Positions 1-64,000 of a stretch of DNA of 64,000 nt are shown here, one piece after another; the first letter of the stretch is position 1; each line of letters opens with the position of its first letter. The translations under genes and the position numbers were made by a program. This DNA is from Bilabrum cf. latius (taxonomy: Eukaryota). The stretch lies in assembly GCA_965178125.1 (NCBI GenBank), contig OZ237740.1, positions 248,001-312,000 on the forward strand, read 5' to 3'. The notes under the pieces were generated by a model. The model saw only the letters and a list, made by a program, of their open reading frames with translations, did not search any database and was not told the DNA's origin.

Positions 1-1403
1 GCCGGGGTGCGCATCTCGTACACCTCGATGGCGCGGTCTGCGCCGTGCACTGCAACGAACCTCCCCGAGCGATCGGAAGTCACGGTGACGACTCGCTTGT
101 CGGGGGCATACCGCGCAACGCCGCCCATCGCAGAAATGTGCTCAGGCTGCGCCACGTCAGAGTCCATCGTGCCGATCCCACCACCGCCGCTTAGGAACGC
201 CTCAATCACAGATTTTGGCTCGCCTGAGGCGGCCGAGGAAGAGGAGGCTACTGCGGCATCGGACGAGCGGCCGGCCGTCTTGAGCAGCGCCCTGTGCCCG
301 GCGGCAGTCGTGGTTCGCATAGCAAACAAGCGGAGCTGCCCGTCGGCACTGCCAGTGATGACCCTGAAAGGCGCGCTCTCGCCGTCAACGCCTGCACGCC
401 CCGCCGCCACCTGGATGGCGTCCGTCGTGGCGGCGGTCCCTTCCCCGGCAGATGCGCCAGGTGCTTCAATGCCGCTGGAGGACATCGCAGCTCTGCCCCT
501 CTTCCTCGAACCCGCCGAAGACGCACCAGCGACGGCTGCCTGCGCACTCCCACCACCCGCTGACGGGCTGGAAAACGCCCCCGTCGCGCCCACCACCTCT
601 AGGTCCCATACCTCGTTCCTGTGACTGTGCACGGTCTGCACGCACGACTACGTCTCGAGATCCCACACCTTGAGCGTGGAGTCCTTGCTCGACGTAAGCA
701 GCCGGAGATCGTTGGCTGACCCCACACCAGAGGAAGCAGAAGGAGCAGACCCAGCCGCACGGCCCCTCTTCCTGGCTGGTGGCCCGCCTGGTGGGGCTGT
801 GCCTCCCACCCGACCCTCCTTGGGCACGAGCTTGCAGGCAGTCACTTCATCCCTGTGGCCCATCAATCGGCAGATGCCCGCCTGTGCCGCAACATCCCAC
901 ACGATCGCGGTGGTGTCCCGTGACGCGCTGGCGACAAACGCGCACTCCTCATCGAAGCTCAGGCACGACACGGCCTTACGATGGCCCTTGAACGTGCACT
1001 GGCGCTCACCGTTGCGCATATCAAACACCCTTACTGAGCCATCGGAGTAGCCTACCGCCGTGCTGAATCCATTCGAGCCAACAGCGACCGCACTCACCTG
1101 CGCGGGGAGGTCCAGCCCGGTCCGGTCTTCCTCGGAAGCGAGGCGCCTCAACTGCGAGCAGGTAGCAGAACACCAAACAGGACAAAATTATAAATGTTCT
1201 ACGACGCACCCCTGATAACCGTAACGCATTGGCGAGCGTGGCCTCCTCACAATTGTACCAGTCTTCACGCTCCATACGTGAGCATCCTCCAGTCCGCCGG
1301 ACACGGCGACATCTCCCGCCGGAGTAGTATCTACATTACACTGAGGTGATGTTACAATACCGAAGCTAGAGCGTTGCTTGTACCGAAGATAGGTTTTCTG
1401 CAT
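1..1403 (-). CDS. WDR3: WD40-repeat SSU processome protein WDR3/UTP12/DIP2 (3' part outside window)
   Basis: N-terminus MQKTYLRYKQRSSFGIVTS matches the WDR3/Dip2 start; WD40 repeats (GHRKAVSCL..WD, GHRDEVT, LKVWD); GT-AG intron 1152-1250; reads through TAG 648-650 as VWDLET[Q]SCVQTVHSHRNEVW. Confidence 0.88.
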
Positions 1404-1629
1404 TGTGCTCGAAACAGAGGGACTTGCAGTTGTGCTTCGCTAGAATTTCAGGGATAGGCGATGCACTTGAGCTTTGCAGTCCCAAGGAGCCACTCAAGTA
1501 CTGCCAGATATGTCGATGCTGAAAATATAGGGTAGTAGCTATCGTAACAATTCCAATATTTGGTATTTTTACGTTTCTCAAGGAATAAGCATGATGGAAC
1601 GTTCGTGAACTATTTATTCCCTTCCAAGT

Positions 1630-4600
1630 TCAGCGCGACTGGAGGCCGCCGGCCGGTATAATCGCGTACTTGTCGCAGATCCGTGTGAACGCCATCGGAA
1701 GCACCACATCTCCCTGGTCATCCTCATCCTCCGAATCGCTCTCTCCAGCCGACGGCCTGGCGATCGGCATGCCCCCGAACCCCCCGCTCTCCTCCTTGGA
1801 CATCTCCACGCTGAGCTCGTGCGCCTCCGAGAAGAACTGCAAAATTGTCTTGTCGGTCAGTGCGCGACGGGGAGAAGCACCTCCCGCCCCGCCCTTCCTC
1901 AGCCCAAGCACCTCGGCCGCACGAGTTGTGCCGGTGCGCTTGCTCTTCCTGCCGGCGTCCTTCACTGCTGCCTGCGCCAGCGACTTGACGATCTTGGAGA
2001 ACTCGCCCACGCTAAGCACACCATCACCGTTATCGTCGTACTCGTCATACATCCTAGTGAGAACCTCCTTCTCCCATCCCTGCCGAGCCTCAAAGATCGC
2101 GACACAAACGTCGATGAAGTGGTCAAAGTCGACCACTGGAGTCTCGGGGTTCAGCTTTGCACTCGTCGCACCCGAAGCCTCCGATGCCGCACCTTCCGTG
2201 CTGCTGCCAGCGACGCTTCCCCTTGCTGCGCCTGAATCTGCTTCTGTGCTGGTGATGGCCGCGGGACGAAACCCACCGTAGGACCCAGCCGCCCTGGAGG
2301 TCTTCGGCTCGCTCAGCTCCAGTTTACCCACCACCGTGGCAGCGATCTGCTCCGCCGTTCCACCTTTCTCGCGAAGGGCCTTGGCTCCTGCATCGTCCTA
2401 TGCCTGGCCCACCGGCATGGCCATGGACACCAGCGCCGACTGGAGCCTGGCCTGCGCATCGACTGGGAATCTCAGCCGCTCAGGGTCCATGAAAGCGACC
2501 GATTTCTGGTGCGTGAACACGAACATGGCGGCGTTCAGCGCGTCCGTCAGCTGGATCGGGCACTGTCCCTCCCGCTTGTGCCTCAGGATCACCGCCTTGA
2601 ATCTGGGGAACAACTCACGGTGGAGGGCTAGCACGAATGCGCCCAGCCTGTAGCTGAACTGGCCCGGCTTCACCACGCCGAGCGCCTGCCCGAATGTTCT
2701 CACTCGGCTAGAAGCACCTTTGTACTTTTGAATGGCCTCTACCAGATTCACGATGTGCTGGTCCACGATGCTGGGCAGCCCGTACTTCTGCAACAGGTAG
2801 TCCTTGATGTAAGCATCCAGGCTCTGCCGTTCGTCTCCCCGTTCGTCGTCATTCTTGTCCTCCACAATCTTGTGCTCTATGATGTCGTACGCGAGAGACA
2901 GGGCACCGGTCAGGTTCAGTCGCTTCATCTTGCCGGGCCCACGCTTGGTGGATCCCTTCGCCTCGCGCACGCCGGCCTTCTTGATGTACTTGCGCCAGGG
3001 GCTGTACTTTGCCTCAGGATCCTCGAAAAACTTCTTCTTGCCGGATGCCTTTGCTGCCCGCGCGGCCGCCTCCAGCTCTTCCTGCTTGGCCTGGCCGATT
3101 GCGGTCCGGATCCGCAGGGGCAGAAACTTGATGGCCCGTTGCACCGGCAGCTTGTGCATCAGCAGCTCGACCAGCGCCTTGCGATCCTCCAGGCCTAGAT
3201 CATCCCTGAACGGCTTGCGCAGAGGACCGTGCGCCTCAAGTGATGCCTTCACAACGCTCTCAACAGCGTGCCCCTTCATCACGTCGAGCAGGTCCCGCAG
3301 CAGCTTGCCCTGCTCGGCGTCGCTGACCGCGTCCAGCTTGACCACCTGCTCCTTTTGCTCATCCGTAAGCTCCATGCTGTCAAATCCGTCCAGACTGTCG
3401 CGGTCGCCATCTGAAGGCCCACCAGCTCCCGAGGCGGGCTGGCCATCGTCCTCGTCATCATCGCCTGCCTCATCGTGCACACCGGCTCCAGCACCGGCGG
3501 CCCCCAAGCTCGCTGCAGATGCCCCAATCAGCATGGCCGGAGTGCGCGCGCCCTGCATGTACTTGAGTAGCCCTAGGGCGTAATCGCCTGGCTTCATCAC
3601 CCGCACCACGCCCTCGTCCACCAGTGTCGTGTCGCGCTCCTCGAGCAGCGCGTGCAGCTCGTCCTGGTCCAGCAGCCGAGCATCGCTGCCCACAAGGAAT
3701 CGGATGGCCGCACCGCGCTGCCAGGTGGGCAGCTGCCGCAGCAGGCGCGGCAGGGCCATCCCGATAGCCTGCTTGCCGGCCGCGTCTGCTGCATTCACGA
3801 TGATATCTGCAGCCTGGCGCGTTGCCTTGTCGTGGTACTTGGCTGAGGGCTCTTGCGCCTCCTCTCCATCCAGGAGCGTCTTCCTGAAGTGCTCCTTTAC
3901 CACGGTTGACACGAGGCGAACGGCATCCGTGTGCTTGGCGTCCTGCCGGTGAATCACCACTGAGGCTGCTTGCTGCACTGCCATGTCCACTGGCGCGTCG
4001 TCGCCCAGGAGCTCGGCCAGGATCTGCTTCAGTAGGTGGGGCGAGACCTCTGAGATGGATTTTTTGATGAACGTGACGCGATCCTCGTCGCTCCCGAGGC
4101 CACCGAACGCGTCCACGCAGCCGTCTACGGTTGCCAGCCTCTGCTTCAGCTCCTCTACCTGCTGCCCCTGTGTCTGCTTCTGGTTCGACATAGCCAATAC
4201 CTGGGTCTTGAGTGCCACCTGACGCGACTTGTTGAAGGCTGACTTCCACTTGTCTACCACGACCGAGCGTCGCCGTACTCCTTCCAGCTCCGTCTGCCTC
4301 GCTTCCTCCCACTGCACCAGCGCCCCCTTGAGGCCATCGATCACCCGCGCCAGCCGCCTCTTGTCGGACTTGAGGCGCTCTGCGCTGGTGAACCAAGGCC
4401 TCAGTCTGTAGTACCGCAGCAGCGCCGTGGATCCAGCCACTCCCGCCCGAGCCCCGGCAAGCTTCTGCTCCAGCCTACGCACGTACTCCGTGCTTGCGAG
4501 CACTGCAGGGGCCGACTGGTCGACCCCGGCAGCTGTTGCCTCCGTGGCTGCTATCCTCTTGGCCTCCTGCAGCTCGGCCCAAATCTGCTGCACGTACTCT

Positions 4601-63023: not shown

Positions 63024-63643
63024 CCCTGCACCCAGCCCATATCAAAAGCGACCTCCCATCACGGATGCTGCAGTGCACCACACACACACAGCACCCTGCA
63101 CCCAGCCCGATTCAAAAGCGACCTCCCATCACGGATGCTGCAGTGCACCACACACACACAGCACCCTGCACCCAGCCCATATCAAAAGCGACCTCCCATC
63201 GTGGATCCTGCAGTGCGCCACACACACACAGCACCCTGCACCCAGCCCATATCAAAAGCGACCTCCCATCACGGATCCTGCAGTGCACCACACACACACA
63301 GCACCCTGCACCCAGCCCATATCAAAAGCGACCTCCCATCGTGGATCCTGCAGTGCATCACACACACACAGCACCCTGCACCCAGCCCGATTCAAAAGCG
63401 ACCTCCCATCACGGATCCTGCAGTGCACCACACACACACAGCACCCTGCACCCAGCCCATATCAAAAGCGACCTCCCATCACGGATCCTGCAGTGCACCA
63501 CGCACTCGCAGCACCCTGCACCCAGTGCACAACGCACTCGCAGCACCCTGCCCCCAGCCCAATTCAAAAGCGACCTCCCATCACGGATGCTGCAGTGCAC
63601 CATGCACACACACAGCACCCTGCACCCAGCCCACCCAGCAGTG
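63024..63643 (+). repeat. Tandem array, ~8 x 70 bp
   Basis: TCAAAAGCGACC units at 63041, 63111, 63181... Confidence 0.95.
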
Positions 63644-63653
63644 ATGTGACCTT

Positions 63654-64000
63654 TCACTTGCAAGTGGCATACACTGTGGACACACCACTTCCCTGAATGT
63701 CAAGCTCGTAGTCCTGTTCCGGTACACCGATGGCCAGGGCGCGCCTAGATGCATCGTAGCGAGCTTGCTCTTTCCCTTCCAGCCTCGAGTCGTACGATGA
63801 GAACACACCCGAGTCGAGGCTTATGTGCCCCCTCTCTGCTTTAGCATACTCTGCACGAGCCGCCTCCAGCCCGCGTCTGGCATCATCAGCCTCGCCAGCC
63901 GACGTTGGAAGGTAGTGGTCCAGCCACTTCATACCAGTGCCACTCGTCGCCATCACCTGCAGGCACATGTGCGTGCTGGTGTGACGGTGCTTCTGGGTGG
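63654..64000 (-). CDS. 3' end of a third MACPF gene A copy (continues beyond window)
   Basis: Matches C-terminus ...QDYELDIQG..VSTVYATCK-TGA of the copies at 17579 and 37292. Confidence 0.8.
   Translation of the reverse strand, partial: TQKHRHTSTHMCLQVMATSGTGMKWLDHYLPTSAGEADDARRGLEAARAEYAKAERGHISLDSGVFSSYDSRLEGKEQARYDASRRALAIGVPEQDYELDIQGSGVSTVYATCK

Follow-up and report, generated by a model that had tools for sequence, protein, structure and literature searches.

Evidence that a GC-rich protist reads UAG, and not UAA, as glutamine in its nuclear genes: an apparently new lineage for a known code variant

The 64,000-nucleotide stretch analyzed here (contig OZ237740.1 of assembly GCA_965178125.1, positions 248,001 to 312,000 of the forward strand), which we refer to as the window and number from its first nucleotide, is most likely nuclear DNA of a GC-rich protist with spliceosomal introns in which UAG specifies glutamine, UGA serves as the usual terminator and probably also as the selenocysteine (Sec) codon of one gene, and UAA has no sense meaning. 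An initial annotation, made from the letters of the sequence, had proposed that TAG is a sense codon for Gln in these genes, and this interpretation is supported by the gene models, spliced contigs and homologues described below. The code variant itself, with UAG read as Gln and both UAA and UGA read as stops, is a known one; it is the lineage bearing it that appears to be new. The GC content of the window is 55-63% per 4-kb bin and ~59% overall, and Pfam recognizes in it the N-terminal propeller of WDR3/Utp12, a myosin-TH1 domain followed by an AGC kinase, an RA/FERM/IQ combination, a weak Selenoprotein-S match, OST3/OST6, MACPF and several reverse-transcriptase open reading frames (ORFs), the coordinates of which are collected in Table 1.

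TAG in the coding frames of the window

The central observation comes from seven coding sequence (CDS) models, two of them unspliced, in which introns were placed by joints in RNA contigs and which together comprise 3,904 codons with a third-position GC fraction (GC3) of 0.72. In frame, these models contain 16 TAG, no TAA and no TGA triplets, along with 24 CAA and 128 CAG codons; one extra TGA, two codons ahead of the TAA that closes the SelS-like gene, lies outside this tally. The 16 TAGs are spread over six of the seven models and constitute 16 of the 168 Gln-type codons (CAA, CAG and TAG) of these RNA-supported genes. All six positions that had been singled out in the initial annotation are correct (TAGs at 648 and 51208 on the minus strand and at 10865, 11039 and 14282 on the plus strand, and a CAG at 58811), and its in-frame TAG counts for the WDR3, 1,518-aa, FERM, kinase, SelS-like and OST3/6 genes were reproduced gene by gene (Table 1). 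Every RNA-supported gene end is either TGA or TAA, and TGA, the terminator originally noted, closes five genes (1,518-aa, EGF/GH43-like, FERM, kinase and OST3/6), which are all of the readable ends except that of the SelS-like gene. The EGF/GH43-like gene serves as a control, as it reads normally with either code.

This pattern exceeds chance when set against the stop triplets in the two other frames of the same genes, which number 147 TGA, 59 TAG and 34 TAA (n = 240): with a TAG share of 59/240, the probability of finding TAG at all 16 of the in-frame stop triplets is ~2e-10. At the level of the entire window, the standard code yields a single ORF of at least 800 aa, as does the reading of TAA as sense, and the reading of TGA as sense yields two; six such ORFs emerge with TAG as sense, a gain obtained despite TGA being the commoner triplet in the six frames (1,910 TGA, 859 TAG and 428 TAA). 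Further, we used a test in which ORFs are not defined by stops at all: each stop triplet in the six frames was judged by its two 50-codon flanks, which were scored by a log-ratio of codon usage derived from the seven CDSs, with stop triplets themselves counting as zero, and a site was called positive if both flanks exceeded 8 bits. By this measure, 22/858 TAG sites are positive as opposed to 0/428 TAA and 0/1,902 TGA sites, and beyond position 15000, outside the training region, the corresponding figures are 17/637, 0/304 and 0/1,501. The 16 best-scoring ORFs contain 51 TAGs.

The contigs on which the gene models depend belong to four runs (X2, X5, X6 and X7), which were compared with positions 1-20000 of the window; X5, X6 and X7 come from two studies and are not on record as RNA, their RNA nature being deduced from spliced joints. 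Contigs of these three runs show eight joints (1151>1251, 8612>8728, 8995>9091, 9295>9399, 9898>10023, 11230>11411, 13632>13774 and 14076>14180), and the segments skipped at them have GT..AG ends in plus-strand genes and CT..AC ends in minus-strand genes. The DNA run X2, in contrast, covers 1-15063 in near-unbroken fashion and with no differences but has none of the eight joints; it may represent the source sample. As the GT..AG/CT..AC joints are present in X5, X6 and X7 and absent from X2, we take the former to be cDNA assemblies. No contig letter differing from the window is listed before 15620, and contigs with no other letters lie over TAG sites, e.g., X5 record 9 (1-1151), X6 record 18 (12351-13432) and X6 record 19 (14180-14910); for the two kinase TAGs, cover is deduced from how long X5 record 13 is, together with the depth table. 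Editing or splicing out of TAG, which had been flagged at the outset as a possible complication, was not encountered in these contigs: the eight observed introns leave the TAGs in, and, the letters being the same as in the window, the TAGs are hence retained in processed RNA.

The residue specified by TAG

The most informative site is the TAG at 10865 in the AGC kinase gene, which lies in the motif RN-x-VEHT and had been taken initially to fall on a conserved Gln. Among the best 120 of 5,181 homologues matched at E <=1e-20, Q is found at this position in 120/120, and in 80 metagenome matches the same column has 70 Q, 8 E, 1 M and 1 L. These 80 loci, retained from a metagenome scan in which a stop was seen in 1/90 matches, include no close relative, the best showing 46% identity over the full length. 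At the second kinase TAG (11039), the three closest of the 120 listed homologues carry Q. In human S6K1, the two positions are occupied by D and T.

The TAG of the WDR3 gene, the other one proposed to fall on a Gln position, is aligned with Q in human WDR3 and also in P0123, a 63% relative that is the closest readable one. In P0122, a 92% relative, the predicted protein terminates exactly at this site, which indicates that a standard caller reads it as a stop in the relative too. These two are the only informative entries among 150 listed matches; the remaining 148 (25-38% identity, mostly >1,000 aa and matched in many stretches) were taken to be generic multi-repeat WD40 proteins and set aside. 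Thus, the TAG columns point to Gln at one strictly conserved site (10865) and again at the WDR3 site. A search with OST3/6 returned three matches, all of which begin past the TAG site and so carry no residue information, and relatives of this gene were seen only as fragments. Taken with P0122, these fragments illustrate how standard callers truncate proteins at TAG, and a standard-code annotation of this genome would be badly fragmented.

The repeated genes and elements of the window offer a different kind of comparison. Across all paralogue families, TAG is kept in 35/39 paralogue positions aligned to TAGs; for instance, both TAGs of the 978-aa ORF are kept in its MACPF-domain paralogue, where the surrounding stretches show 82% and 99% nucleotide identity, and the copies of the reverse-transcriptase element have their TAGs in common. 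None of the aligned paralogue copies has an in-frame TAA or TGA, and the in-frame codon differences between copies that involve stop triplets amount to five distinct pairs, all with TAG. The exchange of TAG and CAG between element copies that had been noted originally is real but is a single case, and at two further sites that vary between copies the partners of TAG are codons other than CAR. A test of neighboring residues, from which three near-duplicate element ORFs were dropped, showed no excess of Gln beside TAG (5/101 Gln neighbors for TAG versus 46/845 for Gln).

The status of UAA and UGA

The only RNA-supported gene that closes with TAA is the SelS-like gene, the C-terminus of which reads ...GGGG-TGA-Gly-TAA (12929-12937, minus strand) and is followed by a 578-nt 3' untranslated region (UTR). 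SelS and SelK proteins have Sec near the C-terminus, and the ending seen here suggests a Sec residue at the penultimate position. Elsewhere, coding-like ORFs ending in TAA are missing but for one antisense artefact, as against 19 ended by TGA at the same threshold, some of which overlap real genes. It had been reported initially that no translated CDS carries an in-frame TAA; this was borne out, with none in the 3,904 codons of the RNA-supported models and none with coding-like flanks on both sides. The accompanying caution that the case for TAA as a stop consists of one gene end plus absence was likewise apt. From the sequence, UAA is probably not a sense codon, and its role as a terminator is argued from that absence, for which P is ~0.005-0.05, together with the SelS-like end.

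Weighing of the alternatives

Several observations count against the reading of UAG as Gln with UAA as a nonsense codon. No tRNA gene was found in the 64-kb window. Strict conservation is seen at a single TAG site, with two more being informative; of these, the kinase site at 11039 varies among the best 120 of 5,181 homologues (V 63, R 32, T 8, Q 5, I 5, E 4 and D 3), and the WDR3 site is aligned with R in Chaetomium Utp12. P0001, a protein 97% identical to the kinase, has Q at both TAG sites, but the same residue stands opposite a TAG of the window that is out of frame; its Qs may reflect a gene caller's reading of TAG, and we gave it no weight as evidence for Gln. Among the paralogues, the TAG at 24945-24947 is paired with CGG and GTG in other copies, and that at 50331-50333 with AAC and AAG. 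With respect to termination, the sole TAA end depends on the TGA two codons upstream being Sec; an Rfam search found no SECIS at E up to 10, and a long hairpin in the 3' UTR of the SelS-like gene (12722-12838, minus strand), in which AUGA lies opposite GA in an internal loop, does not outscore shuffled sequences (z -1.34). Finally, the RNA label of the runs is a guess, and the contigs may miss rare edited variants.

The alternative that survives best is one in which UAA and UAG both specify Gln and TAA is simply too rare to be met with in 64 kb of sequence at this GC3; we regard it as unlikely. Changes in the meaning of the two UAR codons are usually coupled (PMC5304391), CAA itself is rare in these genes relative to CAG, and TAA ends no RNA-supported gene other than the SelS-like one. 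Nevertheless, if TAA and TAG were used in the same proportion as CAA and CAG (24:128), 3.0-9.6 in-frame TAAs would be expected for the 16-51 TAGs of the different sets, whereas 0 were observed; P(0 TAA) ranges from 0.05 down to 0.0001 across these sets, the 22 TAGs of the non-circular flank test giving 0.016. The ...G-TGA-G-TAA ending of the SelS-like ORF, which resembles the C-terminus of the family, also speaks against such a code.

A slightly less probable scenario is that TAG is ambiguous, through readthrough by a near-cognate or suppressor tRNA or through context-dependent termination, or that it encodes a residue other than Gln. The small number of conserved sites and the two paralogue sites with non-Gln partners are what such a scenario would draw upon, as are 12/858 TAGs with a coding-like upstream flank and a noncoding downstream one, including the TAG at 50796, which directly precedes a TGA. 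Opposed to it are the uniform Q at 10865 in the listed homologues, the Q that human WDR3 and P0123 have opposite the WDR3 TAG, the share of TAG among the Gln-type codons, which is too high for leaky readthrough in essential genes, and the confinement of RNA-supported gene ends to TGA and TAA. As for the notion that the TAGs are nonsense mutations of pseudogenes, assembly errors or sites repaired by editing or splicing, CAG>TAG is a frequent nonsense change and retroelements are often dead, but we give it hardly any credence, given that the frames are interrupted by TAG only and never by TAA or TGA, that single-copy housekeeping genes (WDR3, OST3/6 and the AGC kinase) are affected, and that the TAGs stand in the spliced contigs of three runs.

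Relationship to known codes and affinities of the host

It is rare for UAG and UAA to differ in meaning. In PMC5304391, the fornicate Iotanema spirale is presented as the first instance of UAG specifying Gln with UAA retained as a stop, UGA also being a stop; PMC11687900 adds two phyllopharyngean ciliate lineages and Protocruzia tuzeti, in which UAG and not UAA is read as Gln. Codes in which both UAR codons specify Gln (table 6 type) are recorded in PMC11687900, PMC5304391 and PMC6299283 from ciliates, hexamitin diplomonads, Streblomastix, ulvophytes and Amoeboaphelidium protococcarum.

The window resembles Iotanema (PMC5304391) in that, of the two UAR codons, only UAG has been reassigned to Gln and UAA probably has no sense meaning, but UAA is the predominant terminator of that organism, whereas in the window TGA ends five genes and TAA is seen once; furthermore, Iotanema is a metamonad, whereas the window has a high GC content and a kinase with stramenopile relatives. 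The phyllopharyngean ciliates and Protocruzia share the identical codon change (PMC11687900). The window differs from them in being long and repeat-rich, with retroelements, GT-AG introns of 95-180 nt and, as its closest named listed kinase relatives, Hondaea and Cafeteria, and these features taken together give no sign of a ciliate. With the UAR codes it has in common the use of UAG for Gln, and it departs from them in that its genes have no in-frame TAA. The same table (genetic code 15, TAG as Gln) is reportedly also used by crAss-like phages of bacteria, where suppressor tRNAs are said to act late in infection; the window, in contrast, is from a nuclear genome with spliced genes.

Concerning the host, the closest named relatives among the 120 listed kinase homologues are from Hondaea fermentalgiana and a Cafeteria transcript (49-50% identity), with other relatives at 51-56% being closer, and for the kinase, WDR3 and OST3/6 relatives at 84-97% and 60-67% identity were found. 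This single gene offers a lead toward a stramenopile-affiliated host. The order Myosin_TH1, Pkinase, Pkinase_C (9881-11947, plus strand) is common to all of the top kinase homologues, including those from Hondaea and Cafeteria, and could be a lineage marker; the EGF/GH43-like gene was not useful as a taxonomic marker in the Protein Atlas. We also considered an origin from Amoeboaphelidium or another aphelid, since in this algal parasite both TAG and TAA are reported to be read as Gln (PMC6299283). Two runs that contain a small share of the present sequence carry the labels algae metagenome and protist metagenome, which does not amount to evidence of habitat. The aphelid candidate was rejected on GC content, given in PMC10608142 as 40.5% and 39.9%, compared with the 55-63% seen in the window, and no NCBI-named aphelid protein is found among the 120 listed kinase homologues.

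By analogy with other lineages that use this code, decoding would involve a tRNA-Gln with the anticodon CUA, which would pair with UAG and not with UAA, and an eRF1 blind to UAG yet still recognizing UAA and UGA; it has indeed been argued (PMC5304391) that CUA is the only anticodon compatible with UAG as Gln and UAA as a stop. An independent origin of the code in this lineage is plausible. The stronger proposal, namely a previously unreported and independent origin of UAG as Gln with UAA not sense in a stramenopile-affiliated protist outside the ciliates and metamonads, with TGA acting as the near-sole terminator and also as the Sec codon, is one that we put forward tentatively, holding it to be nearly as probable as its negation but not quite. 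No published report of TAG as Gln in a stramenopile or labyrinthulomycete was found in a search that left supplements and subscription-only papers outside its range. The available text of PMC11687900 lists only Iotanema, the two phyllopharyngean lineages and Protocruzia as cases of UAG alone specifying Gln, and each unrelated case tests whether evolution follows one and the same route, in which a copy of tRNA-Gln(CUG) is mutated to CUA and eRF1 comes to lack recognition of the G in UAG. If the origin is indeed independent, the public DNA and RNA runs would allow the tRNA-Gln(CUA) and the eRF1 changes to be identified directly.

Gene content and repeat families of the window

Table 1. Genes, ORFs and repeated elements of the window, with their in-frame TAG triplets
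Feature	Positions	Strand	Introns	In-frame TAG	End	Domains and contig evidence
WDR3/Utp12-like gene, 5' part, runs off window	3-1403	-	1152-1250	1: 648-650		Beta-prop_WDR3_1st 167 bits (cut-off 154); joint 1151>1251 (CT..AC) in X5, X6 and X7; X5 record 9 and X7 record 21 span 1-1151, 0 other letters
1,518-aa gene	1633-6186	-	unspliced	4: 5995-5997, 5833-5835, 5125-5127, 2398-2400	TGA 1630-1632	X5 record 10 spans 1592-6188, 0 other letters, 0 gaps
EGF + GH43-like gene	6305-7552	+		0	TGA 7550-7552	X5 record 11 spans 6305-7721
RA/FERM/IQ gene	7760-9401	-	8613-8727, 8996-9090, 9296-9398	3: 9188-9190, 8372-8374, 8090-8092	TGA 7760-7762	FERM_M 25.7 bits (cut-off 23.8), RA, IQ; three CT..AC joints
Myosin-TH1 + AGC kinase gene	9817-11950	+	9899-10022, 11231-11410	2: 10865-10867, 11039-11041	TGA 11948-11950	Pkinase E 1e-64, Myosin_TH1, Pkinase_C; GT..AG joints in X5, X6 and X7
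SelS-like gene	12929-13408	-		5: 13193-13195, 13109-13111, 13091-13093, 13070-13072, 13067-13069	TGA 12935-12937 (candidate Sec), Gly 12932-12934, TAA 12929-12931	Selenoprotein_S 24.4 bits (below 29.8 cut-off); X5, X6 and X7 contigs over 12351-13432, 0 other letters
OST3/OST6 gene	13579-14812	+	13633-13773, 14077-14179	1: 14282-14284	TGA 14810-14812	OST3_OST6 138.7 and 51.1 bits; GT..AG joints in contigs
MACPF-ORF paralogue, 978-aa ORF	17582-20515	-		2: 18347-18349, 19625-19627		
MACPF-domain ORF, 1,101 aa	37295-40597	-		4, incl. 38060-38062, 39338-39340		MACPF E 3.7e-10
1,147-aa ORF	41546-44986	+		8		No Pfam family; 0.10 bits/codon, weakest of best-ORF set
Three-copy family, member	24183-25649	+		1: 24945-24947		
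Three-copy family, other copy	14989-16596	+		0		
Three-copy family, other copy	49233-50798	+		3		
Reverse-transcriptase element ORF, 1,403 aa	54821-59029	+		7		RVT_1
Further reverse-transcriptase copy	58762-62763	-		6		
Further reverse-transcriptase copy	26016-27806	-		3		
Further reverse-transcriptase copy	27604-29544	-		1		
CAG/TAG swap between element copies	58811-58813 (CAG) and 51208-51210 (TAG)	+ and -		51208-51210		98.5% identical alignment

The first 15 kb of the window has very tight gene spacing, and the rest is repeat-rich. For example, the 5' end of the RNA contig of WDR3 (1554) lies ~38 nt from the 3' end of the contig of the neighboring gene (1592). This neighbor, the 1,518-aa gene, had been labeled TSNAXIP1-like; the label found no support in Pfam, which returned only a weak EF-hand match (E 0.0014). 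The TGA that stops the FERM gene is followed by ~10 in-frame TGA triplets, which constitute a (TGA)n microsatellite (7729-7771) that was skipped as a repeat in the contig comparison. A search with a FERM exon at longer target lengths gave no matches, and PDB searches with the FERM exon and with the SelS-like ORF gave no meaningful ones. In the kinase gene, the second intron (11231-11410, plus strand), of 180 nt, preserves the reading frame and contains no stop, such that an unspliced ORF runs through it, as does the predicted protein P0001. No Rfam family reaches its gathering score in the window, and eRF1 is not among the genes recognized there.

For the two MACPF genes, the initial annotation had counted four and six TAGs; in-frame TAGs are present in both, but the long ORFs alone give two and four, respectively. 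The copies of the three-copy family are ~90% identical, ~500 aa long and without a Pfam family, and the summed contig word depth over them in X5 is ~1,500-1,700 as against 20-100 over neighboring genes, a figure that is not a measure of expression. The family, queried as 15001-16596, met with low recognition in the Protein Atlas. Two of the reverse-transcriptase copies, 54821-59029 on the plus strand and 58762-62763 on the minus strand, lie head to head with an overlap at 58762-59029, and fragments of the 3' part of the element recur at ~51109-51261, 53924-54076 and 54539-54691.

In addition, a related unit of 67-72 bp is repeated in tandem, 7-12 times per array, in four arrays of the window, at 16917-17532, 36560-37271, 45002-45796 and 63012-63629, of which the third is opposite in orientation, judging by eye from the consensus units. 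The arrays are open in several frames and thereby generate spurious ORFs, and three of them adjoin MACPF-family or other long ORFs.

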